Shown here one piece after another: positions 2,581 through 57,445 of a stretch of DNA of 64,000 bases. A model generated the notes under the pieces. That model was not told where the DNA came from. It ran no database searches and worked only from the letters and a program-made list of their open reading frames with translations. The stretch lies in assembly GCA_018819405.1 (NCBI GenBank), contig JAHJQF010000001.1, positions 665,676-729,675 on the forward strand. The letters run 5' to 3'. Every line of letters starts with the position of its first letter. Position 1 is the stretch's first letter. Origin of the DNA: Patescibacteria group bacterium. Its GTDB lineage: Bacteria > Patescibacteriota > Patescibacteriia > UBA1558 > GWA2-36-10. The translations under genes and the position numbers were made by a program.

Positions 2581-3873
2581 TTATTGTATAGTCAAATAAA
2601 AATTTTCTTCGGGAGTGAGAATAAAAAGTCTATCTCCTTTTTTGTTGAACAAATACATTTTCTTGCGGGGATTTTCCAAAAGATTGATGGTATTACGCTG
2701 GTCACGTCCGTCTATTTCAATCAGATTGGTGCGATCATTTATCTCAGAGATAAAATAACTACCATTGGGATGCCACATAATCTCCGAAACTAGATTGGAA
2801 GACCTATCAATCAGGCTTTGCCACTGATTTTTGTAATCAAAAAGGATTATTTCATGACCATTCGAAAGAAGTAGTCTCTCGTCGTGAAGCTCTGCCAAAG
2901 TCACTGGGATAGTGACCAGATCCTGAAAAGTATTTTTTATGTATAGCTTGGAGCCCATCAAGAAAATAAGATAATTATTGTCTGCTAGTAGGATTCTCAA
3001 ATTTCCGATACTGGCATCATTGATAAATTGTTTTGATTCTAGGGTGTAGCGGTCAAACTGCTCTATATAATTTTCTTTATCCAGAGTGTACTGGACAATC
3101 AGCCAGTTGCCTTCTATATCAAAGTCATTTATAGATTGATCAATTTCCAAGAGCTTATCAGGATAAGCAGAAGAGTCCCAAGGCTCTCGTCTTTCTTTTC
3201 GGTATAGTTTATTATCTTTGAGATATATAAAGGTAGAAGAATTTTCTTCCCAAAGTATTTTTTGGATTTTGTCCAAGAGCAGAGGAGTTAGAGTTTTTTG
3301 GTTGATATCAAAATAAAAATATTCGCTTTGATTTTTTAAAAGCATCATTTGATTGTCAGCTGACCAGTCTACTAGGTCAAAGTCTTCTTCCAGATTGAAG
3401 ACATCAAATTTTTTACCTTGCTCTACATCAGTAATTATCAATTTATTTTCGTCAATATAAGCGTATTGATATTTTTGTTTGTTTATCAAAAATCTGTCAC
3501 TGCCCTGACCCAAAAGAGTTTTTTCTCTGTTTTCCAAAAATAAAACAATATCTTCGGCAAAAGTAGTCTCGCCTGAGGAGACGTCAAGATTTTTTTGCCA
3601 ACTAACATATTTATTTTTACTGACCACTATTTTGTGTTTGCCTGGTTTTATGTTGAGCACCTGACTGGGGGTTTGACGTTTACTTTTTTGGTCATCCACA
3701 TAGATATCAGCCCCTCGGGGGTATGACTTAATATAAAAAGCGCCATTTTTTTCAATATTGCCAGTATCAAAATCATAGCGATAACCTAAAGAATAGACCG
3801 TTAGTAATGGGGCTATTATAAAAAATAAGAGAAAAAAGAAAGAATATGTAAGTCTACGCAGTGTTTTTTCCAT
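2581..3873 (-). CDS. Membrane-anchored PEGA-domain protein with a C-terminal beta-rich domain.
   Basis: There is an N-terminal transmembrane segment. The stretch FYIKSYPRGADIYVDDQKSKRQTPSQVLNIKPGKHKIVVSKNKYVSWQK matches the PEGA domain pattern. Confidence 0.55.
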   Translation of the reverse strand: MEKTLRRLTYSFFFLLFFIIAPLLTVYSLGYRYDFDTGNIEKNGAFYIKSYPRGADIYVDDQKSKRQTPSQVLNIKPGKHKIVVSKNKYVSWQKNLDVSSGETTFAEDIVLFLENREKTLLGQGSDRFLINKQKYQYAYIDENKLIITDVEQGKKFDVFNLEEDFDLVDWSADNQMMLLKNQSEYFYFDINQKTLTPLLLDKIQKILWEENSSTFIYLKDNKLYRKERREPWDSSAYPDKLLEIDQSINDFDIEGNWLIVQYTLDKENYIEQFDRYTLESKQFINDASIGNLRILLADNNYLIFLMGSKLYIKNTFQDLVTIPVTLAELHDERLLLSNGHEIILFDYKNQWQSLIDRSSNLVSEIMWHPNGSYFISEINDRTNLIEIDGRDQRNTINLLENPRKKMYLFNKKGDRLFILTPEENFYLTIQ

Positions 3874-8976: not shown

Positions 8977-9597
8977 TTATCTCATTATAAACCACATGAC
9001 AGTGACTATTGCCCAAGTGATGACATTGCCTAGCTCGCCAATAAATAGTCCTTTGGTACTCCTATCCCAACCTCCTTGGTGGGCGTTTATCCAGACTTGT
9101 AAAAATCTGGGGAAAGAAGTGATGTGACTGGCTATCAGAGAAACAGTGGGTAGACCTTCGGAACTACCGGCTTGGTAGATGACATAGGCCATCCATAGTT
9201 GAGGGATGCCTTTGCACCACATCGACAAAAAACCTTTGGCAACATCATCTTTATAACTGCCAAATTTGTAGATGGTTGTCATAGATAGTCCAGAGACTAA
9301 TATGACAACTATTGTGTCTCCGTGTTGCCAGCGAATAGATCGTATTCCGATGATAAACAATCAGGTAAAAATGGCGATAAATTGAATAAAAATACTGATG
9401 ATTCGGCGCCGATCTACCGTGGGATTGTTACGGTAGGAAGACACAGACAGAACTAGGCTAAAACACAGGTAGGCGACAAATAGCAGCCACAAGGCTAGGG
9501 TCAGCCCTTTTGTATGACCACTAAAGACCTGTATAGTCTGAAACAGAGCATAGGTCCAAGCCGCAATGACTTGGATCCAAAAGAGGATTCTAGTCAT
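8977..9597 (-). pseudogene. Small polytopic membrane protein (PQ-loop/SemiSWEET-like?) split by an in-frame TGA at 9361-9363. Either a pseudogene or a read-through gene.
   Basis: The 78-aa ORF (9361..9597) and the 127-aa ORF (8977..9360, TTG start) are contiguous and in frame, separated only by TGA. Together they give about 205 aa with multiple hydrophobic helices and a PQ dipeptide (KGIPQLWMAY). An SD (agaaaggccaaagtcATG) and a dedicated promoter lie upstream, and a hairpin plus T-run terminator lies downstream. Confidence 0.4.
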
Positions 9598-9646
9598 GAC
9601 TTTGGCCTTTCTCTTTGAGTTGGTAATGAAACAAAACGGACTAGCG

Positions 9647-9675
9647 ACTATATCATATTTTGTCTATTTTGTCAA
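9647..9675 (-). promoter_or_regulatory. Consensus sigma-70 promoter, TTGACA-N17-TATAGT, reading leftward into the membrane-protein gene.
   Basis: The reverse complement is TTGACA AAATAGACAAAATATGA TATAGT. The first 19 nt (TTGACAAAATAGACAAAAT) are duplicated at 10497-10515. Confidence 0.55.
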
Positions 9676-9764
9676 TGATAAATAATATAAAAAGAAAAAC
9701 CGTCTTGTATGAACAAGATGGTTTTTCTTGTTCACAACGACGGTTGGTGAGAGATCTACTTGGG

Positions 9765-10007
9765 TTAGCTCTCGGGAGTTTCCGACATGAGCTGGTCTTT
9801 GTTGTCCAGCAGTCGCTGGCGGACGATCAGAGCTTGCTCGCTCAAGTCTTCCAAGTAGTTGGCCAGCATCTCGACCGTGCAACTCGGACCAATGACACTC
9901 CGAACATCTCGGAGTATCCTCATGATATGGACCAGGTTGATGGAGGTGGAGAGTTCTTCGTTGGTTCCGACCTGTCGGAGCAGTTCGTAAGTGTGAATTA
10001 CTTTCAT
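9765..10007 (-). CDS. Hypothetical 80-aa protein, GC-rich. It has its own promoter, SD and terminator.
   Basis: It has a strong SD (aaggagatcactATG) and a promoter TTGACA-N17-TATAAA at 10059-10087 (minus strand). The terminator hairpin aaaaaccgtcttgtatgaacaagatggtttttc lies at 9697-9729. The overlapping plus-strand ORF 9660..10223 is judged spurious. Confidence 0.55.
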   Translation of the reverse strand: MKVIHTYELLRQVGTNEELSTSINLVHIMRILRDVRSVIGPSCTVEMLANYLEDLSEQALIVRQRLLDNKDQLMSETPES

Positions 10008-10139
10008 AGTGATCTCCTTGGTGGGTGTTTGTGGGTGGGAGGGAACTTTGTATATCTTTTTATATATTATTTAATACTTTTTGTCAATGAAAAAACCGCC
10101 TCACAAGAAGAACGGTTTTTCCCGTTGTTTGAGGGCGGT

Positions 10140-10434
10140 GTTTATTTGCCGAAGATTTCAGCGATATTTCGGCTGATTTCATCACCGGTCAGGGGACATA
10201 GCTCCTTGATGTTGATGGTATAGCCTTCTTGGTTGGTGGTCAGACCTTTTTCCAGGTAGTACCCCCAGCGTACTTGATGCATTTACGGTAGCCTTCGGGC
10301 GCTTGGTTGTGGCAACTACTGGAAATAATGATGCGTAGATTCCGATCAAGTAGCCAGGTGGCTGAAGGCGCCAAATCGCGCTGGTTGATTGTACGGCCAC
10401 ACTGTTTGGTGCAGCCACAGTTGTAGGTGTCCAC
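10140..10434 (-). pseudogene. Cys-rich small protein gene (about 97 aa) disrupted by a 1-nt frameshift in a C5/G5 homopolymer at 10261-10265.
   Basis: A GTG start with an upstream aggaaag SD gives MDTYNCGCTKQCGRT..SSSCHNQAPEGYRKCIKYAGG. The +1 frame then continues YYLEKGLTTNQEGYTINIKELCPLTGDEISRNIAEIFGK and stops with TAA directly before a terminator hairpin at 10089-10122. One extra G in the run would restore a single ORF. Confidence 0.45.
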
Positions 10435-12992: not shown

Positions 12993-13117
12993 CTCTTTTA
13001 CATAAAATGCTAAAAGCTTAGTTAATTAAATGTTTGATAATTTTAGCAGAAAGATTTTAAAATATCAATACTTTTTGGGTTATTTGTGGATATCTTTTTA
13101 AAATCAGGGGGAGTATA

Positions 13118-13192
13118 ATGAAAATATGGAAAAGATCAATGATATATGTTACTATGTTTAATAGATTAGATCATTATAATAGGATATATTAA
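13118..13192 (+). CDS. Candidate 24-codon mini-ORF (MKIWKRSMIYVTMFNRLDHYNRIY) with a strong SD. Speculative.
   Basis: It has an SD of the form cagggggagtataATG, which is unusual in this SD-poor backbone. A palindromic hairpin (ctagccaaggtggctag) plus a T-run follows directly. It sits immediately upstream of the repeat-peptide gene. Confidence 0.2.
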   Translation: MKIWKRSMIYVTMFNRLDHYNRIY

Positions 13193-13300
13193 GAAAATCT
13201 AGCCAAGGTGGCTAGGTTAAAGCAACTCTTTTTTTGAAAGGAGGATTTTGTCAGAAGACAGTGCCGCTTTAAACCCTCCACCCCACCTGGAGAGAAAACC

Positions 13301-13609
13301 ATGAAGAAAGTGTTGTACATCGTCATTTTCGCGCTGTTTTCATATTCGCTGGCCTTGGCCGGCGATCCCATCGATGGCAACGACGAGCCGATGAGGTCTG
13401 CTACGACCACGTCTGTGGCCGGCGATCCCATCGATGGCAACGATCATCCGATGAGGTCTGCTACGACCATGTCTGTGGCCGGCGATCCCATCGACGGCAA
13501 CGATCATCCGATGAGGTCTGCTACGACCACGTCTGTGGCCGGCGAACCCATCGACGGAAACGACGGACCGGTATATCTGTGGCAGGTGATTTTCTACCTG
13601 CTGTTCTAG
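13301..13609 (+). CDS. Secreted repeat peptide. A signal peptide is followed by 3.5 copies of a 20-aa unit (A)GDPIDGNDHPMRSATTTSVA and a hydrophobic C-tail VYLWQVIFYLLF.
   Basis: An SD (ggagagaaaaccATG) precedes it. The cleavage site looks like SLALA|G. The repeats are perfect in-frame 60-nt copies, and a terminator hairpin (ggggcacctattagctagtaggtgccc) plus a T-run follows. The locus is GC-rich and the antisense ORF is judged spurious. Confidence 0.6.
   Translation: MKKVLYIVIFALFSYSLALAGDPIDGNDEPMRSATTTSVAGDPIDGNDHPMRSATTMSVAGDPIDGNDHPMRSATTTSVAGEPIDGNDGPVYLWQVIFYLLF
13358..13570 (+). repeat. Tandem direct repeat: three complete 60-nt units (13358-13417, 13418-13477, 13478-13537) and a partial fourth copy.
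   Basis: The unit is gccggcgatcccatcgatggcaacgatcatccgatgaggtctgctacgaccacgtctgtg, with 2-4 substitutions per copy. Confidence 0.9.
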
Positions 13610-13710
13610 AGCCGGCATCAATCCAACCGGGGCACCTATTAGCTAGTAGGTGCCCTGTTTTTTATTATAAACTATAGCTACTATTGTGTTATATTGTTTA
13701 TTTTTGCAAA

Positions 13711-13833: not shown

Positions 13834-13961
13834 AACGAACAAGGTGAGTGTAGGCTCGGGTTAAAAAAATCCGAGTCGAAGACGAGGTTCCTAAGATGCT
13901 GTGCAATAGCACAGCGCCCCGAGCCAAACGAACAAGGTGAGTGTAGGCTCGAGTTAAAAAA
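13834..13961 (+). other. Conserved tRNA-Gln 3' trailer module of 93 nt ending in a copy of the tRNA 3' end (GCCCCGAGCCA), followed by a 35-nt partial tandem repeat of its own 5' part. A hairpin terminator follows at 13962-13992.
   Basis: The module 13834-13926 is about 89% identical to 57353-57445, downstream of the second tRNA-Gln. It contains the hairpins cccgagcc..ggctcggg and gctgtgcaatagcacagc. The segment aacgaacaaggtgagtgtaggctcg(g/a)gttaaaaaa occurs twice, at 13827-13866 and 13927-13961. Confidence 0.5.
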
Positions 13962-14052
13962 TAGATGAAATTTATATTTCATTTTTTTATTTGTATATTT
14001 TTTTATTAGATGATAAAATTTAAATCAAGATTGTTAATTCTTATATTATTTT

Positions 14053-14271: not shown

Positions 14272-14427
14272 TGAATAAAGATTTTTTTAGGAAAATAAAT
14301 TACAGAGCTCTTGGGCTCTGTTTTTTGTTCCTATTATATTGACATAATAAGTTATTTATATTATAGTTAAATGTTAATTTAGGCACTTTGAAAAGTGAGT
14401 GTTTTCAAAACAGAGGGAGGCAGTAAA

Positions 14428-15609
14428 ATGCGCGCTAGCACAAAGAAAAGTCAGTTTGTCGCCTTGTTTGTTGTTTTTTTGGTCATGGCCATTGGTTTTG
14501 GCTCTGGCTTTGGAAGCGATGAACAGGTGATGGAAATTTGGCACTGGCAAGAGGATTGGCGTCTGGGCGGAGAAGACGAGAGTTTTATCTTCGCCTCAAT
14601 TAGCAAGGTGCTTTTGGGTCATGACAACAATTTGTACATCTTGGATGGCAGAAGTTCCAAGATTTATGTTGTTGCTGTTGCCGATGGCAAGCACCAAAGA
14701 ACCATCAGCATTTCTGGCGAAGGGCCAGGTGAGCTCAGTTTTTCCGGCAATATGTTTTTGATGGGTGATGAGCACATTGGTCTTTTGCGGACCACTCCGG
14801 CCAAAATCGTCTATATTGATTACCAAGGGAAACCTGGGCCAAGCATTTACTTGAATGAGAATCCTTCTGGCATGTTTCTCTCTACCTTTGCCAAATGGCA
14901 AAATGGTATATTGGTTATTGCCGGAAGCAATTCTATTCCCGGAGAAACTTGGCTCGGCCAATACGTTGAGTATGGTGAGAAGTTTCGTTATGTCAACTAT
15001 CCTTTGCGTTCCTTGTTTCTTGAACAAAAGTTAGTGGAAGAGGATACCTATTTTTACTCTTACAAACCTTGGGATCTTGATAAAGATGGCAATCTTTATC
15101 TTGCTCCTTATTGGGGTGATAAGAGTAAAAATGAATATCACTTCAATGTATATGACACGCAGGGGAAAAAGCTACGAGAGATCAGTCATGAATTTGAGCC
15201 ATACGAGCGTTCAAATGAGGAGAAACGCTTGGCAAAGGCTTCACTTGTGGGCGGTGTCGAGGACTTGAAGATGATGGAGAGCTTGGGCGGTGAATGTGTA
15301 GTTGAAGATATTGCGCCAAATATCTTTGACATTACCATTCACTCTGATGGTAGGATTTGGGTGGAAACCAGTCGTAGCGCAAAGAATCAGCCCGAGGGCA
15401 TATTCAAAACCTACGACATTTTCCTGCCAAGTGGCGAGTTTTCCCATCGGGTAGCGCTAGCTTTGCCGGCCAACGGAGAAAAAGACATAGTTTACTTTAT
15501 TTCTGACGACCAGCTCATTGTGGTCAAAGGCCAAAAAGATATATTGAGTTTTGGCGCGTATCCGGATGCCGATGTTTTGGAAATTATTTGCTACTCTCTA
15601 TCAAGGTGA
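14428..15609 (+). CDS. Secreted hypothetical protein (about 393 aa) with a signal peptide; possibly a beta-propeller fold.
   Basis: The SD gagggaggcagtaaaATG places the start at 14428; the track ORF begins earlier, at 14395. The N-terminus is MRASTKKSQFVALFVVFLVMAIGFGSG. GC content is moderate. No family was recognised. Confidence 0.5.
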   Translation: MRASTKKSQFVALFVVFLVMAIGFGSGFGSDEQVMEIWHWQEDWRLGGEDESFIFASISKVLLGHDNNLYILDGRSSKIYVVAVADGKHQRTISISGEGPGELSFSGNMFLMGDEHIGLLRTTPAKIVYIDYQGKPGPSIYLNENPSGMFLSTFAKWQNGILVIAGSNSIPGETWLGQYVEYGEKFRYVNYPLRSLFLEQKLVEEDTYFYSYKPWDLDKDGNLYLAPYWGDKSKNEYHFNVYDTQGKKLREISHEFEPYERSNEEKRLAKASLVGGVEDLKMMESLGGECVVEDIAPNIFDITIHSDGRIWVETSRSAKNQPEGIFKTYDIFLPSGEFSHRVALALPANGEKDIVYFISDDQLIVVKGQKDILSFGAYPDADVLEIICYSLSR

Positions 15610-15734
15610 TAGAGAAAGGAGGTCAAGAGAGGTCAATAAGTATATTGGCCTCTCATTTTTTTTGATCAAAAAAAGAGGACTCGTTTGTAACAGTGACGAG
15701 TCCCCGGAAGAAGTGTCTGGCGCCGAGTTGGTGT

Positions 15735-16058
15735 TTAGGCGCGCAGATGATAGGTGGTCACGGTGTCGCCGGCGTCGTCGACCTCGATAATAGTCGTTTC
15801 TTCGACGTTCTCCGCGGGACCTTGCACGAAGTCCCATTCCCATTCCTGGCCCTCCAGCTGCATGTAGGCCAGACACATCGCGTTCCAGCCCCAGGACTCC
15901 CAGTTGTGCTCCTCGGCTGCTGTGCAAGCGACCGGAAGCAAATCCTGCTCCTGGGTCTCCGAGGAGACAACAGCGGCCTCACTGGTCTGAGGCATGATCA
16001 TGATGATGACACCGATCGCCAAGAAGGCGATGAGTGCCATCGTGGTGAGCTTCTTCAT
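15735..16058 (-). CDS. Small secreted Trp/Glu-rich hypothetical protein (107 aa, signal peptide), GC-rich.
   Basis: The sequence is MKKLTTMALIAFLAIGVIIMIMPQTSEAAV.. with an upstream SD (gggaagagaggaagagATG). Bidirectional hairpins lie downstream at 15625-15735. The overlapping ORFs 15601..15927, 15693..16124 and 15758..15982 are judged spurious. Confidence 0.45.
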   Translation of the reverse strand: MKKLTTMALIAFLAIGVIIMIMPQTSEAAVVSSETQEQDLLPVACTAAEEHNWESWGWNAMCLAYMQLEGQEWEWDFVQGPAENVEETTIIEVDDAGDTVTTYHLRA

Positions 16059-16145
16059 CTCTTCCTCTCTTCCCTTTGGGGTTGGCGGTTACTTGGAATT
16101 TACTATAAGTCTCCTTTGTTCTAGAGTGACGGCCACAATGTAATC

Positions 16146-16805
16146 CTAGGGTGTTTTTGCGGCCAGTGTACCAACGATTCCTATTCTAGTTGGGTCTATG
16201 TCCAAGCCAATGAGTTGGTATTGGCTGTACTTTTTGGGTAAACGGACATAAACAGCATTGGGCCGTTTATTGTAATCCGGTTTATTGTTGAATTGCCGGT
16301 TGAAGACAATAGTGCTTTGCCTTGAATCGTATGGCTTGCCCACATTGCCTTCATAGTAAACAGCTAGACAACCAAGGTCATCGGTTTCCACAATAGAGCT
16401 GTCTGGCGTCAAAAATCGGAAGTGAAAGGCTTTTTGAGAGATATTGATGTCTACTCCATCTTTGATGAAAAATCCTAGGACATAGAAAGCAAAATTTTGC
16501 TTTCTGATTTCCCGTCCCATCATGATTTCCAAGGGGCGGGTCCTTGGTAACGTAGCATCAAACTGTGCGAGCACATCGCTAGGTGCGTTCATACCACGCA
16601 GAGTTTCTTTTTTGTCTGCCATCTGGCTTTCAAACTTGGCGATGTTGAACCAACCGCCCTTGACGATTTTGAAGGAGCTGGTGCTGACCAGCTCATTGTG
16701 GTGGGACTTGGTGGTTGCCTGTGTTTGAATTTGTTGATTGGTCACAGCACAGGCCGAGACCAAAAACACACTTGCCAGCAGGATGATATGTAGAAGGCGT
16801 TTCAT
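16146..16805 (-). CDS. Putative lipoprotein of unknown function.
   Basis: The SD aagaggagctaaaATG precedes it. The signal peptide ends in a lipobox (LVSAC). A promoter-like TTGACA lies upstream at about 16905, minus strand. GC content is moderate. Confidence 0.6.
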   Translation of the reverse strand: MKRLLHIILLASVFLVSACAVTNQQIQTQATTKSHHNELVSTSSFKIVKGGWFNIAKFESQMADKKETLRGMNAPSDVLAQFDATLPRTRPLEIMMGREIRKQNFAFYVLGFFIKDGVDINISQKAFHFRFLTPDSSIVETDDLGCLAVYYEGNVGKPYDSRQSTIVFNRQFNNKPDYNKRPNAVYVRLPKKYSQYQLIGLDIDPTRIGIVGTLAAKTP

Positions 16806-16924
16806 TTTAGCTCCTCTTAGGTCCCAAAAAGAACCTTTTGCTTCAGGGTTAGAGAGTTATTTCAAAGGACCATTCACTTATATCTTTATCATTTTCTTTG
16901 TTTTTTGTCAATATTTAAAAAAAG

Positions 16925-16975
16925 GGGGACTCGCCGTAGCCGGGGGGAATTGGCTACAAATGGCGAGTCCCTGTG
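16925..16975 (-). terminator. Intrinsic terminator on the minus strand, downstream of the response-regulator gene.
   Basis: The stem is gggactcgcc..ggcgagtccc. On the minus strand it is followed by cccttttttt. Confidence 0.5.
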
Positions 16976-17161
16976 CTACCCTCTAGAGGCAGCATTATTA
17001 GCAGTTAAGTATTGACTAACTGCGCAGAGGATAAATGAACATTTTTTCTGGTGGGCTACTTCCTGAGCCACCAGAACAGATAAATGAGCGCCAGACTCAT
17101 CTCATAATGCATGCCGCATTTCCTTTCGTGTGTCTGGGGTTATTTTTCCCCTAGCCAACAA

Positions 17162-17576
17162 TCAGCAGGAAACGGCCAGGAAAGTTTCAATGTACTCCAC
17201 AAAGTGCAGGACATTGAAGGGCTTGGGGAAAAAATGCGCTCCGTAGAGCTTCAACAGGTGTTCGATTTTCTTGGTCTTTTTGTGGCCGACGAGGATCACC
17301 GAACAATTTTTGCCCAGCTCCATGTCGTAGATAAGACCGCAGAGCCAGTTTCCGTCGATACGCTCGGCTTCGGCGATGACCACGTCCGGGAAAGGTCGTG
17401 TCTGGATCAACAACCCGATGACATCGACTGCACTGGTGACCAACTTGGCTTGTTTGTCCTGATTGGACCAGACGATGTTGGCGAGTACTTCATGACCAGC
17501 ACCACTGGTTTCCAGAGCGTGACGAAGGGTCTTGATGGTGTCGGCGTTGTCGTCGTAGATGAAAATGCGAGACATG
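17162..17576 (-). CDS. Single-domain CheY-like response-regulator receiver protein, possibly atypical at the phospho-acceptor position.
   Basis: The SD ataggaggtcccaacATG gives MSRIFIYDDNADTIKTLRHALE..PDVVIAEAERIDGNWL..KPF. The acidic pocket DD and the conserved Lys (KPF) are present. By alignment, the usual phospho-acceptor Asp appears to be Glu (VIAEAE). The track ORF 17162..17659 begins further upstream. Confidence 0.55.
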
Positions 17577-17655
17577 TTGGGACCTCCTATGTTCTGATTT
17601 GGCAAAACAAAAAAACGTCCCAACAATGAGACATTTTGTGTACGCCAAACCAGCG

Positions 17656-17889
17656 TCAATGCCGGTTGCGCTACTGACTCCCCATTGCCCTTGTCTCGAC
17701 ACTAAGTCGGACTAAGCGCCCAATTAATAGGCAACGGTTCTTCGTCTCATTGATTTTATAGAATCCTTTCTGTTTTGAAAGAGCTTGATTTATCAAAAAA
17801 ACACCTTTTTGAGGCGTTCCGACAAATCAAGCATCTGTTGCTTTGTTAATGTCGGTTACGCTACTAGCTCCCGACTGCCCTTAGCCTCG
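17656..17889. repeat. Two imperfect 43-nt direct repeats (17656-17698 and 17847-17889) flanking a 12-bp-stem hairpin (gcttgatttatc..gacaaatcaagc). They lie in the roughly 400-nt leader of the response-regulator gene.
   Basis: caatgccggttgcgctactgactccccattgcccttgtctcg and taatgtcggttacgctactagctcccgactgcccttagcctcg match at about 33 of 43 positions. A minus-strand promoter TTGACA-N17-TACTAT lies at 17987-18015. Confidence 0.4.
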
Positions 17890-18064
17890 GTTGGATTTAT
17901 TCCTTAGAATAATTTACCGGGCACAAGCGTCCAAATTACAGACAGTCATTCATTGCTCCATTGGTATTTTATTGTAAATTTATGACATAGTAGCACATAA
18001 TAAAATATTTGTCAAGAGTAGACAAATTGAAAAAAAGACCATTTTGTGGTATATTTGAGCCATA

Positions 18065-20317: not shown

Positions 20318-20545
20318 ATGTCACTGCATAAAGTTGTTGAGTTAATATTTACATTGGTAATACTTTTATTTTTGGCTATTATAGTGCTGGGCGTATTAGT
20401 AGGTATTACTATAGTCCAACAATTATCTTATTTTGATGTGGGAGTTACCGGACAATTTATTTTTGTCGGTGGAATGTTTGCAATTTTTATGTATATCATG
20501 AAGATGATTGTTGATCGCATCAAAGATTATAATCGCTATATCTAA
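20318..20545 (+). CDS. Small hypothetical membrane protein, 75 aa with two transmembrane helices.
   Basis: The sequence includes LIFTLVILLFLAIIVLGVLVGITIV and FIFVGGMFAIFMYIM. Confidence 0.4.
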   Translation: MSLHKVVELIFTLVILLFLAIIVLGVLVGITIVQQLSYFDVGVTGQFIFVGGMFAIFMYIMKMIVDRIKDYNRYI

Positions 20546-52625: not shown

Positions 52626-55097
52626 ATGCTAGATTACATTGTTATAGGGTTTATAATATTATTTTTCTTAACCGTAATAACTATTCTATTACGCTGGCTT
52701 TACATACGTTGGGGTGACAAAAGTAACAAAGGAGTATCCTTTGTTGTTTTACGTATAAAGGTTCCCCAATATTCTACTCAAGAAAAAGACAAAGAAAATA
52801 AGGAATATATCCAAAATAGTTTAGGTCAAATTGAAAATTTTTTTACAGTGCTAAGTGGCTTAAAGGCTCAGCGCAAAATAAGACGAACTGATTTATTTTC
52901 TATAGAGCTGGTCTCAGATAGTGGTATTATAAATATATATGCTGCTATGCCACCATCTTTAAAGGATTTTTTTGTGGAACACTTGCAATCTGTCTACCCA
53001 CATATACATTATGAAGAAGTGAGTGATTATAATATATTTCAGCCAAATGGCGTGATACTTGCCGGATCTCTTCGTTTTGCTAGGGATTATAGTCTACCTA
53101 TTAGGACTTACCGTAAGTTTGAAAATGACCCAATGGAGTCAATTACTAATGCTTTGAGTAAGCTAAATGAAAATGAAGGCGCGGCAATTCAATATGTTTT
53201 CCGTTCGTCTAAGTCAAAATGGCATTCTCGTGGCCGAAAAATAGCTCAGCATATGCACCGGGGCTTGACTTATAATGAGGCTTTGAAAAAAGCGGGGGGA
53301 GGGGGAGGATTTTTTAATACTAGCGCCAAAATTTTTGGTTTTTTTATAGATTTCTTTACAACTCGTGATCCTAATAAAGAAAAAGAAAAAACACCAGAAC
53401 CACAGCCATTATCTGCTATGGAGCAAGAAAGAGCCAAAGGTATGGAAGAAAAAACTGCCAAATCAGGTTTGGATGTCAATATTCGGATGGTTGTTTCTAC
53501 ACCATCTAAGGAAAGATCTACAGCCATTCTTTCAGATATAATGAATAGTTTTTCCCAATACAATATATATGAATTTGGTAATAGTTTCAAAATTTTTTTA
53601 CCGAGAAATATTGATACTTATGTAGAACATTTTATATACAGACATTTTGTTCCTCAAAACAGTATGCTTCTCAATTCTGAAGAAATGACCAGCGTTGTCC
53701 ACTTACCTATACCTGGCACTCATACTCCAAACATTGATTGGTTAGGAGCAGTGGAAGCTGCCCCACCAACCAATATGCCTACTGAGGGTATTATTTTAGG
53801 TTTAAATACTTATCGTGGTAAAAAGACTGTAGTGCGTATAAAAGATGAGGATAGGCGTCGTCATATGTATGAGATTGGTCAAACGGGCACTGGTAAATCC
53901 GTATTTTTAGAAAGTCTAGTTATTCAGGATATAGAAGCTGGCAGAGGCGTTTGTGTCTTAGATCCACACGGCGACCTAGTAGAAAAAGTCTTGGCCCATA
54001 TTCCAAAAGAAAGAGCTGAAGATGTAATTCTTTTTGATCCCTCTGATGTTGGTAGACCAATGGGTATGAATATGTTGGAATTTGAGACTGAAGAACAAAA
54101 AAGTTTTGTGATCAATGAAATGATTGCTATTTTTGATAAATTATATGATCTCAAAGCAACAGGTGGGCCTATGTTTGAGCAGTATATGAGAAATGCCATG
54201 TTGCTTATTATGGAAGACAAAGAATCCGGGGCAACACTTTTAGAAATCCCCAAAGTTTTATCGGATAGTTTATATAGGAAACAAAAATTAGAAAAAGTAA
54301 AAAACTATTTAGTTCGTGATTTTTGGGAAAAAGAAGCCCAAAAAGCTGGTGGTGAAGCATCACTTGCCAATATGGTACCTTATATCACCAGTAAGCTGAC
54401 ACCTTTTCTTTCCAACGACCTTATTCGTCCTATTGTTTCTCAGGAAAAGAGCGCTTTCAATTTCAGAAAAGCCATGGATGAAGATAAGATTATTTTGGTC
54501 AACCTGTCTAAAGGTAAGATTGGTGATATGAATAGTAGTTTGCTGGGTATGATTGTGATTGGTAAAATACTATATGCTGCTTTGAGCAGAGTAGACATGC
54601 CAGAAGACCAACGAAAAGATTTTTATCTTTATATTGATGAGTTTCAAAATTATATTACCGATAGTATTTCTGTAATTTTATCAGAAGCTAGAAAATATAA
54701 ATTAAATCTTATTTTGGCTCATCAATTTTTGGCTCAGTTGGTCAAAAATAATGATACCCGAATCAAGGATGCTGTGTTTGGAAATGTAGGCACTATAATT
54801 TCCTATAGGATAGGTGTAGATGATGCTGAGGTAATAGCCAAACAAATGGCTCCAGTTGTATCAGAATATGATCTGTTAAACATGCCCAAGTATACCTGTT
54901 ATGTAAAACTTTTGATAGATAATCAAAATCCACCAGCTTTCAATTTTATGCCTGTTTTACCTGAAAAAGGAAATTATGAATTAGCCAAAACAATCAAAGA
55001 GTTGTCTCGCTTAAAGTATGGTAGAGATAAACAAGTAGTGGAAAATGAGATCAGAATACGTTCAAATATTGTAGCTGATCCACCAAAAGTGGCCTAA
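52626..55097 (+). CDS. Membrane-anchored VirB4/TraC/HerA-class P-loop ATPase (type IV secretion-like).
   Basis: An N-terminal transmembrane segment and a domain of about 400 aa are followed by Walker A YEIGQTGTGKSVFLE, then VCVLDPHGDLVE (the D-x-G-D/E motif typical of VirB4/HerA). Walker B is FYLYIDEFQNYI. The C-terminus has LNLILAHQFLAQL. Length is 823 aa. Confidence 0.5.
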   Translation: MLDYIVIGFIILFFLTVITILLRWLYIRWGDKSNKGVSFVVLRIKVPQYSTQEKDKENKEYIQNSLGQIENFFTVLSGLKAQRKIRRTDLFSIELVSDSGIINIYAAMPPSLKDFFVEHLQSVYPHIHYEEVSDYNIFQPNGVILAGSLRFARDYSLPIRTYRKFENDPMESITNALSKLNENEGAAIQYVFRSSKSKWHSRGRKIAQHMHRGLTYNEALKKAGGGGGFFNTSAKIFGFFIDFFTTRDPNKEKEKTPEPQPLSAMEQERAKGMEEKTAKSGLDVNIRMVVSTPSKERSTAILSDIMNSFSQYNIYEFGNSFKIFLPRNIDTYVEHFIYRHFVPQNSMLLNSEEMTSVVHLPIPGTHTPNIDWLGAVEAAPPTNMPTEGIILGLNTYRGKKTVVRIKDEDRRRHMYEIGQTGTGKSVFLESLVIQDIEAGRGVCVLDPHGDLVEKVLAHIPKERAEDVILFDPSDVGRPMGMNMLEFETEEQKSFVINEMIAIFDKLYDLKATGGPMFEQYMRNAMLLIMEDKESGATLLEIPKVLSDSLYRKQKLEKVKNYLVRDFWEKEAQKAGGEASLANMVPYITSKLTPFLSNDLIRPIVSQEKSAFNFRKAMDEDKIILVNLSKGKIGDMNSSLLGMIVIGKILYAALSRVDMPEDQRKDFYLYIDEFQNYITDSISVILSEARKYKLNLILAHQFLAQLVKNNDTRIKDAVFGNVGTIISYRIGVDDAEVIAKQMAPVVSEYDLLNMPKYTCYVKLLIDNQNPPAFNFMPVLPEKGNYELAKTIKELSRLKYGRDKQVVENEIRIRSNIVADPPKVA

Positions 55098-57352: not shown

Positions 57353-57445
57353 AGCGAACAAAGTGAGCGCGGGCTCGGGTTAAAAAAATCCGAGTCGGAG
57401 ACGATGTTCCTAAGATGCTGTGCAATGGCACAGCGCCCCGAGCCA
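57353..57445 (+). other. Second copy of the conserved tRNA-Gln 3' trailer module (ends GCCCCGAGCCA). It is followed by the hairpin tgaaccgttacggttca, a third CCGAGCCA occurrence and a terminator-like hairpin.
   Basis: It is about 89% identical to 13834-13926. Both hairpin stems are conserved, and the substitutions fall in the loops. Confidence 0.5.

Follow-up and report, generated by a model that had tools for sequence, protein, structure and literature searches.

A putative phage-type gene for a short exported motif-repeat protein, probably acquired recently by a Patescibacteria genome

A short gene in the chromosome of a Patescibacteria group bacterium appears to encode a member of a rare, previously undescribed family of short, predicted secreted proteins, whose other members, where they could be located, seem to be phage-borne. 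The gene occupies 13301-13609 (+, stop codon included) of the window, by which we mean the whole 64,000-nucleotide stretch analysed here (assembly GCA_018819405.1, contig JAHJQF010000001.1, positions 665,676 to 729,675). Its 102-aa product carries four copies of a short motif, GDP[LI]DxNDxP in the family at large, behind a predicted signal peptide. We favour, with moderate confidence, the view that this is a recently imported phage-type gene for an envelope-associated motif-repeat protein of variable valency. If this is true, the gene would bring to notice a small uncatalogued phage-borne secreted family built on one short acidic motif, a candidate envelope- or cation-binding short linear motif; it would be a foreign gene caught soon after transfer, with donor-like codons and a Shine-Dalgarno (SD) sequence in an SD-poor genome; and it would offer a natural two-allele system, four versus two motifs on an identical background, for motif valency. 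What is new is the membership in a rare, uncatalogued, phage-borne family, and its importance is modest on present evidence.

Searching databases with the repeat protein, as the original prediction had suggested for its 20-aa unit, recovered about ten short, predicted secreted relatives by HMMER and profile search. The phmmer run was exhaustive against 1.84 billion representative proteins, and profile searches then extended the family. Among the 25 phmmer matches, 24 were large repeat proteins without the motif, discarded as repeat-on-repeat artefacts, and the sole genuine one was P0007 (95 aa; phmmer E = 2e-8, 46% identity over the full length; local blastp E = 2.5e-15). P0007 reads MKFILTLAIALVLCAGVATA / GDPLDTNDGP… GDPTDTNDSP… GDPIDGNDGP… GDPLDANDGP-QYTVVWLPPNTWLVIPW, and the order of its parts is that of the window protein, namely a signal peptide, a motif array and an aromatic hydrophobic tail right after the last motif. 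The relatives are stand-alone proteins of 65-98 aa, each with a signal peptide followed by one to four motif copies. The three closest (P0007, P0026 and P0027) share the architecture of the window protein, P0026 (65 aa) and P0027 (98 aa) both having two motif copies and a hydrophobic aromatic tail. In P0028 and P0029 (97 and 96 aa), two copies are followed by a 4-Cys, Trp-rich domain, while P0030, P0031 and P0033 (74-78 aa) have one copy and a Cys/Trp-rich C-terminal part (four Cys in P0030 and P0031, two in P0033), P0032 (78 aa) has one copy and another C-terminal part, and P0034 (91 aa) has one degenerate copy (DQPLDVYDSP) and a tail like that of P0027.

The position of the motif is as regular as its sequence. 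Nine of the ten homologues have Ala at -1, Ala or Val at -3 and the motif 0-3 residues past the predicted cleavage site, and in the tenth, P0034, the degenerate copy lies at the same place after the signal peptide. In the family alignment (A3), P23, D25, D28 and P30 are invariant and G21, D22, L24 and N27 nearly so; the window protein has the same features, with 102 aa, four motif copies and the first of them at residue 21. It had been thought that the repeat could turn out to be a linker of a larger protein truncated here, which we consider not to be the case because the homologues are themselves short stand-alone proteins of 65-98 aa. Profile searches showed the family to be absent from Pfam, PHROGs, NCBIfam and the PDB. 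With the 102-aa ORF (open reading frame) alone, a word-indexed search of 5.8 billion proteins and an exact-sequence look-up gave no match, and translated searches found no relative in GTDB representative genomes, JGI metagenomes, IMG/VR or INPHARED phages. A match to phrog_10254 (E = 0.0016) was too weak to use, as was a match of P0034 to an 'Rz-like spanin' (E = 0.005), which was probably driven by the signal peptide; plasmid matches of the ORF were chance similarity to WD40 repeat genes. At the DNA level, similarity to the homologues is limited to short patches of 23-38 nt.

Judged by gene content, every relative that could be located lies either in a phage contig or in a phage-like row of tiny co-directional genes, and the phage loci that carry them have 56-62% GC. 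P0007 and P0026 occur in two syntenic siphophage contigs, L053 (59.5 kb) and L054 (57.7 kb), of 58-62% GC, which carry DNA polymerase A, a DUF5906 primase-helicase, a GH108 endolysin, a holin and tail proteins, and whose polymerase shares 51-52% identity with the enzymes of Ab18/PaMx11-type Pseudomonas siphophages. The P0027 gene has the same two upstream genes as those for P0007 and P0026, and the loci L055-L060 are strings of tiny co-directional genes, an arrangement typical of phage early regions. The sister phages L053 and L054 share ~72-78% DNA identity, and their motif genes differ by a 90-nt, two-motif indel, leaving four motifs in P0007 and two in P0026. In L053, four genes for signal-peptide proteins or lipoproteins follow one another, encoding a 198-aa secreted protein, a 63-aa 4-Cys protein, the motif protein (third in the row) and a 383-aa lipoprotein. 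The gene for the secreted 63-aa protein (C-x9-C-x2-C-x3-C…LMAD…W) lies directly upstream of the motif gene in L053 (9769-9960), L054 (9773-9964) and L055 (615-806), and its product is a homologue of the module that P0028-P0031 carry C-terminally, fused to the motif. Given fusion in the latter and adjacency in L053-L055, the motif and 4-Cys modules are therefore linked both ways.

By its sequence, the gene at 13301-13609(+) looks functional, combining an SD, an ORF and a terminator. The ORF, supported by the ORF call, the homologue P0007 and the GC content at third codon positions (GC3), starts with ATG, 6 nt downstream of the SD GGAGAG (13289..13294, +), which was read from the sequence. Its product runs, in order, MKKVLYIVIFALFSYSLALA / GDPIDGNDEP-MRSATTTSVA / GDPIDGNDHP-MRSATTMSVA / GDPIDGNDHP-MRSATTTSVA / GEPIDGNDGP / VYLWQVIFYLLF. 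Residues 1-20 (13301..13360, +) form a predicted Sec-type signal peptide with cleavage at ALA/GDP, based on a rule-based reading and on an AF2 helix: the N-terminus, MKKVLYIVIFALFSYSLALA, has a KK n-region, a hydrophobic core of 14-15 residues and Ala at -3 and -1, followed by GDP. Here and below, signal-peptide and membrane-anchor assignments come from sequence rules and AF2. The four motif copies, all on the plus strand and found by six-frame regex, are GDPIDGNDEP (13361..13390, also by family alignment), GDPIDGNDHP twice (13421..13450 and 13481..13510, the latter also implied by a contig break described below; both are missing from a shorter allele), and GEPIDGNDGP (13541..13570, also by alignment), which adjoins the tail as in the phage homologues. 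Separated by a 10-aa Ser/Thr/Ala linker, the G[DE]PIDGNDxP copies make up an acidic array. The hydrophobic tail that the original prediction had placed after the repeats is indeed there, as the 12-residue aromatic C-terminus VYLWQVIFYLLF (13571..13606, +; alignment to P0007, AF2), of which Y92, W94, V96 and I97 align with P0007. Hairpin prediction places an intrinsic terminator at 13628..13667 (+), with a 13-bp stem (7 G-C pairs), a 4-nt loop and a T-run; the hairpin itself (13628-13657) begins 19 nt past the stop codon. The claim that the ORF is a genuine gene for a secreted protein is supported. The AF2 model (mean pLDDT 55.6) has helices only at residues 2-18 and 93-101, the latter short and of low confidence, and the mature part is predicted to be disordered.

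We hold with high confidence, on sequence grounds, that 13301-13609(+) is coding, because five of the eight variable columns of the repeat fall at third codon positions and three of the eight belong to one codon, that for the x of NDxP. This position varies across the family as well, whereas G, D, P, D, N, D and P are conserved in the homologues. The opposite ORF at 13340-13621 (minus strand, 93 aa) shows none of the plus-strand coding features. An Rfam scan of the leader and the repeat gave no match, and the fold of the 5' leader (13195-13310) was not significant (z = -1.7). An SD-like AAAGGAGG lies at 13237-13244, 56 nt upstream of the gene, and a TTG at 13248 opens an 18-codon ORF (MSEDSAALNPPPHLERKP) whose TGA overlaps the ATG of the repeat gene (ATGA); its reality is doubtful because the spacing from SD to TTG is just 3 nt.

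The repeats form a tandem array with a period of 60 nt and 3.5 units at 13356..13563 (+; Tandem Repeats Finder (TRF) score 360), by far the strongest repeat of the 64-kb window in TRF and in a repeat search. It had been described as perfect: the 3.5 tandem copies were confirmed, but the perfection was not, as TRF gives 94% identity, without indels, and eight columns vary. The 20-aa units end variously (...NDEP / ...NDHP(..TTM..) / ...NDHP / GEP..NDGP), and the substitutions between units avoid the conserved motif positions. The repeat-number variation that had been anticipated was found between assemblies. Contig L001 (ENA ERZ27247117; a 1.04-Mb MEGAHIT contig) matches window 2636-23112 at 20,357 of 20,357 compared positions, with no mismatch in the flanks, and carries 1.5 units instead of 3.5, an exact in-frame difference of 120 nt. 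The missing two units correspond to 13418..13537 (+), with the breakpoint within a 38-nt stretch common to the ends of units 1 and 3, and the L001 allele encodes an in-frame 62-aa protein with the signal peptide, motifs 1 and 4 and the tail. The 20-kb flanks show no difference at all, yet 4-5 sites distinguish unit 1 from units 2/3, so the 3.5-unit form is probably the older one and the 1.5-unit form a deletion. In an independent Logan assembly (SRR6514730, k = 31), contig L002 stops at 13417, with the last 31-mer that is unique to unit 1; there, a second predecessor (the CAT-type unit) would create an assembly branch. This implies at least two full units, and with them motif copy 3, in that read set. 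At its left junction, the GC-rich block in which the gene sits is identical in three assemblies, and at its right junction it is identical in two. The DNA for the start of the tail (13573-13590, ATATCTGTGGCAGGTGAT) shares 83% identity with the last part of the repeat unit (ACGTCTGTGGCCGGCGAT, at 13409-13426, 13469-13486 and 13529-13546), with an offset of 44 nt and hence in another frame, and a frame-shifting deletion may have produced the tail from the linker or the linker from the tail.

The composition of the locus points to a foreign origin. A block from ~13199 to ~13657 has 50-65% GC, compared with 17-28% in the flanking intergenic DNA, and lies between the promoter region of an AdoMet-decarboxylase gene and a tRNA-Gln. 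The repeat gene has 56% GC and a GC3 of 0.72, uniform over signal peptide, repeats and tail, against 34-40% GC and a GC3 of 0.22-0.36 for the host genes of the window. Horizontal acquisition, as originally proposed, is therefore supported by the high GC3 and by the phage-borne relatives at 56-62% GC. The unusually strong SD also proved distinctive, an SD core within 20 nt of the start being present in only 7 of 57 window ORFs, five of which were counted in or beside GC-rich patches (one of these five being an AT-rich mini-ORF discussed below). Because 56% GC, a GC3 of 0.72 and an SD match phages of 56-62% GC and not a host of 35% GC that is nearly SD-less, we infer that the ~460-bp block at 13199-13657 was acquired horizontally and recently. 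It appears to be a solitary insert and not a prophage, because no other window ORF matches the phage loci of the relatives, and the neighbouring ORFs tested against PHROGs gave no meaningful match (one weak, E = 0.007). Genes within ±10 kb encode LytR-CpsA-Psr, a ROK kinase, AdoMet decarboxylase, a tRNA, a beta-propeller protein, orphans and a SpoU methylase. The host genome is at least 1.04 Mb and has housekeeping genes such as those for CTP synthase, L9, RecJ, PBP2, MurJ and LepA. Synteny at the locus is not conserved in the nearest relatives, L003 and L004 (84% and 75% AdoMet_dc identity), so the insertion site is not bracketed by comparison. In the databases searched, the repeat gene was seen in this strain only.

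Under the reading we favour, the block would have arrived recently and would behave as a phage 'moron' does, being a self-contained gene that brings a terminator along; the terminator at 13628-13657 and the GC steps at ~13199 and ~13657 are what such a unit should have. The 102-aa protein would be exported across the membrane and trimmed at ALA/G by signal peptidase, and the mature protein would stay at the envelope via its hydrophobic C-terminus, displaying an array of two to four copies of an Asp/Asn-rich short linear motif of variable valency. The number of motifs would shift in frame by unequal recombination or slippage between 60-nt units, and the 1.5-unit allele of L001 would be the expected product of such an event in the 38-nt stretch common to units 1 and 3. 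With low confidence, the motif might bind a divalent cation or a ligand on the envelope or the phage. In phages, the product may alter the cell surface, for instance for superinfection exclusion, and it might possibly do likewise for its new host. By analogy, an exclusion or surface-masking role seems the most plausible function, which we put forward tentatively.

The analogy draws on phage-encoded envelope proteins that block superinfection, such as the lipoprotein Ltp of phage TP-J34, Cor of phi80/HK022 and the Sie proteins. Like these and other morons, the window gene is small and self-contained, with its own terminator, a deviant composition and a signal peptide, and like phage morons its relatives lie among secreted-protein and lipoprotein genes in phage genomes. 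The window protein differs from Ltp, Cor and Sie in lacking sequence similarity to them and a meaningful PHROG match, and in not being a lipoprotein; unlike a phage moron, the gene is found in a bacterial chromosome, where its surroundings show no recognisable prophage. In-frame variable-number tandem repeats (VNTRs), or contingency repeats, are known in bacterial surface-protein genes. The array resembles VNTRs in its near-identical units, in a unit length (60 nt) divisible by three, and in a number that differs between otherwise identical genomes, here near-identical assemblies. Unlike contingency repeats, its variation would alter valency and not an on/off state, and it comprises two alleles, both from assemblies. 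Another point of comparison is CwpV, a surface protein of Clostridioides difficile whose C-terminal tandem repeats are variable and which provides phase-variable resistance to phages (PMC4737114). Like the window protein, CwpV is a secreted repeat protein; its function lies in the variable repeat region, and it offers a precedent for surface repeats acting against phages (PMC4737114). The two differ in that CwpV is large, anchored by cell-wall-binding domains and switched by DNA inversion, while in the window protein the repeat number varies, and there is no homology between them.

Several observations weigh against the view of a recently imported, envelope-associated motif-repeat protein. The family has only ~11 members, the weaker of which (P0028-P0034) were found at E = 1e-3 to 0.8 and appear to be linked to the others mainly through a 10-residue motif and its position. 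The 12-aa tail, VYLWQVIFYLLF, would fall below the length of a canonical transmembrane helix and is without the P-P-N turn of the phage tails; no basic residues follow this hydrophobic stretch. The 102-aa protein carries no C-terminal sorting signature (LPXTG, PEP-CTERM or GlyGly-CTERM), and NCBIfam sorting domains gave no match at E <= 1. A sigma-70-like promoter was not found in 13199-13300 or elsewhere inside the GC-rich block; the nearest plus-strand promoter-like site upstream lies at 13034-13063, and expression would need read-through from there or an unrecognised promoter. The window has no 16S rRNA gene, which bears on the host's reliance on SD sequences. Finally, the 1.5-unit allele could be a MEGAHIT collapse.

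Some of these points would also fit a dead passenger, that is, a recent foreign fragment that is unexpressed or functionless and whose repeats change neutrally as the fragment decays towards loss. The block has no detected promoter, host genes hardly use SD sequences so that foreign translation signals may not matter, the change observed is a deletion from 3.5 to 1.5 units, the gene was seen in this strain only, and several other GC-rich orphan patches lie in the window. However, ORF, SD and terminator are all intact, the shorter allele is still in frame and retains its signal peptide, two of the motifs and the tail, and the substitutions between units spare the conserved motif positions; we thus regard a dead passenger as somewhat unlikely, yet the most serious competitor. 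A far weaker case can be made for a non-coding tandem repeat (an iteron, a satellite or an assembly artefact) that is open on both strands by chance. The 93-aa minus-strand frame at 13340-13621, the intergenic-like position beside a tRNA and the Logan contig break inside the array are compatible with it. It is, however, largely refuted and scarcely credible in view of homologues that are recognisable as proteins while their DNA similarity is confined to patches of 23-38 nt, the proper placement of signal peptide, SD and terminator on the plus strand, the bias of variation to third codon positions, and junctions that recur in three assemblies (left) and two (right).

The original prediction had also raised a multi-core precursor of a ribosomally synthesised and post-translationally modified peptide (RiPP) or a pheromone. 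In its present form, this alternative holds that the gene encodes a RiPP, bacteriocin or signalling precursor in which the signal peptide plus GDPLDTNDxP serves as a leader or recognition module, and that the C-terminal parts or the repeated units are released, perhaps by cleavage at Asp-Pro or Asn-Asp-Gly. Multi-core RiPP precursors, for example of the cyanobactin type, likewise carry several near-identical short units behind an N-terminal leader, and the units in the window are near-identical. The family is also modular, one N-terminal module being combined with a hydrophobic hairpin (P0007, P0026, P0027) or a 4-Cys Trp-rich domain (P0028-P0031), and the occurrence of the 4-Cys module as a separate 63-aa gene upstream in L053-L055 resembles leader/core shuffling. 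On the other hand, unlike RiPP precursors, the window protein has an ordinary Sec leader with an AxA site, and the repeated element is the conserved motif, the variable part being merely a 10-aa linker. Within ±10 kb, the window has no radical-SAM, YcaO, lanthipeptide, protease/ABC-transporter or RRNPP-receptor gene, and none is recognisable beside the phage homologues, whose neighbours match no recognisable family; nor was an RRNPP/TPR receptor gene, as expected for a Phr/AimP-like pheromone, found beside the ORF or the phage homologues. With neither maturase, receptor nor transporter within ±10 kb, the RiPP or pheromone proposal found no support, and we consider it improbable. A broader version of the phage-type reading, speculative and quite unlikely as a whole, is that GDP[LI]DxNDxP after a Sec signal marks an unrecognised class of modular, envelope-acting exported phage peptides with interchangeable C-terminal effectors, of which the window copy would be a very recent cross-lineage capture, its valency tuned by rapid in-frame gain and loss of repeats. 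Under that version, the effectors would be a hydrophobic beta-hairpin or tail, or a 4-Cys/Trp-rich domain that is also found as a separate adjacent gene, and the products might serve in exclusion, as toxins or bacteriocin-like peptides, or as signals.

A calcium-binding role had been suggested for the motif by likeness to DxDxDG loops. The spacing does not agree, the motif (D-P-I-D-G-N-D) being acidic at positions 1, 4 and 7 with Gly at 5, whereas such loops require acidic or Asn ligands at 1, 3 and 5 and Gly at 6, and Pfam gave no EF-hand, TSP3, dockerin or RTX match for the ORF at E <= 0.01 or for the homologues at E <= 1. A different likeness is to the cadherin linker pattern DxNDNxPxF, which the last motif copy resembles in having an aromatic residue two positions on (DGNDGPVY in the window protein, DGNDGPHF in P0026). 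The inter-repeat Ca2+ linker motifs of cadherins are XEX-DXD-D(R/Y)(D/E)-XDX-DXNDN, and the last position of DXNDN binds Ca2+ via the backbone and tolerates substitution (PMC8691648). Every motif copy has D-[GTA]-N-D-x followed by Pro, a weak likeness to DXNDN with four fixed residues. Yet a cadherin site needs four other motifs from two folded EC domains, and the window protein has no folded domain in AF2; the Cadherin Pfam model matched neither the window protein nor its homologues. The cadherin likeness is thus a lead from a four-residue pattern and not a sign of membership, and cation binding by D-x-N-D-x-P is a lead as well, not a finding.

The GC-rich cassette had been drawn to include a 24-codon mini-ORF at 13118..13192 (+; ORF list, GC content, L003 comparison). 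The cassette itself was recovered as the block from ~13199 to ~13657, but the mini-ORF lies outside it and, because it has only 19% GC, is host-type intergenic DNA. It is preceded by GGGGGAG, and a TATAAT at 13114-13119 overlaps its ATG. The region upstream of AdoMet_dc is conserved with L003 up to ~13101, and a comparison of window 13101-13120 with L003 ~2440-2460 reveals a 14-nt extra segment, AATCAGGGGGAGTA, the source of the SD-like G-run of the mini-ORF. With indels allowed for, the first ~20 nt of the mini-ORF match the start of an isoaspartyl-methyltransferase-like gene that is divergently transcribed in L003 and has no counterpart in the window, and the mini-ORF is therefore, with moderate confidence, a probable relic of the 5' end of a lost gene. 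The hairpin terminator once assigned to it is a 7-bp hairpin at the left edge of the GC-rich block (13199..13215, CTAGCCA-AGG-TGGCTAG); it was flagged on the minus strand alone, lacks a plus-strand T-run and is lost in the minimum-free-energy fold of 13195-13310.

On the other side of the block, an element of ~95 nt follows both tRNA-Gln genes (TTG and CTG) of the window, at 13834-13927 and 57353-57445, with ~93% identity between the two copies and a partial extra copy at 13918-13962. Its predicted fold has two strong hairpins (z = -4.1), and at its end the 3' end of the tRNA, GCCCCGAGCCA, occurs a second time. We rejected this 3'-end duplication as an att site of the cassette, the same element being present at the second tRNA-Gln (57353-57445). 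It may be a tRNA-linked small RNA or processing element, and the Logan contig L052 breaks inside it. Two kilobases upstream of the second tRNA-Gln, an 823-aa protein (52626-55097, +) shows weak matches to TraD/VirD4-type coupling proteins and may belong to a system for conjugation or one resembling type IV secretion.

The window also contains other GC-rich patches, at 1-2000, 9000-10400 and 14400-18000 (44-55% GC in a genome of 33-37% GC), filled by orphan ORFs with a GC3 of 0.47-0.79 and with no Pfam and no meaningful PHROG match, which suggests repeated uptake of GC-rich foreign DNA. The ORF at 15735-16058(-) encodes a Trp-rich protein of 107 aa with a signal peptide, is SD-bearing and has a GC3 of 0.79, and is the second such gene in the window. 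It was considered as a homologue of the phage 4-Cys/Trp proteins and rejected, as it was not among the best-scoring of the window's 933 ORFs with a seven-module hidden Markov model, the best match to which (E = 0.26) was another ORF. In the patch at 14400-18000, Rfam identified a c-di-GMP-II riboswitch at 17651-17758(-) (59.7 bits against a gathering score of 53.5, E = 9.6e-11), lying upstream of and overlapping the start of an orphan ORF at 17162-17659(-) that has no Pfam match. As for the start sites of the host, (T)AATTTCTAACGGG directly abuts the start codon of five genes, e.g., at 3873(-), 18148, 22219, 37326 and 42983, and other window genes have TATACT or TATAAT immediately 5' of the start codon. 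Such SD-poor starts with abutting (T)AATTTCTAACGGG, TATACT or TATAAT suggest leaderless or very short-leader mRNAs.

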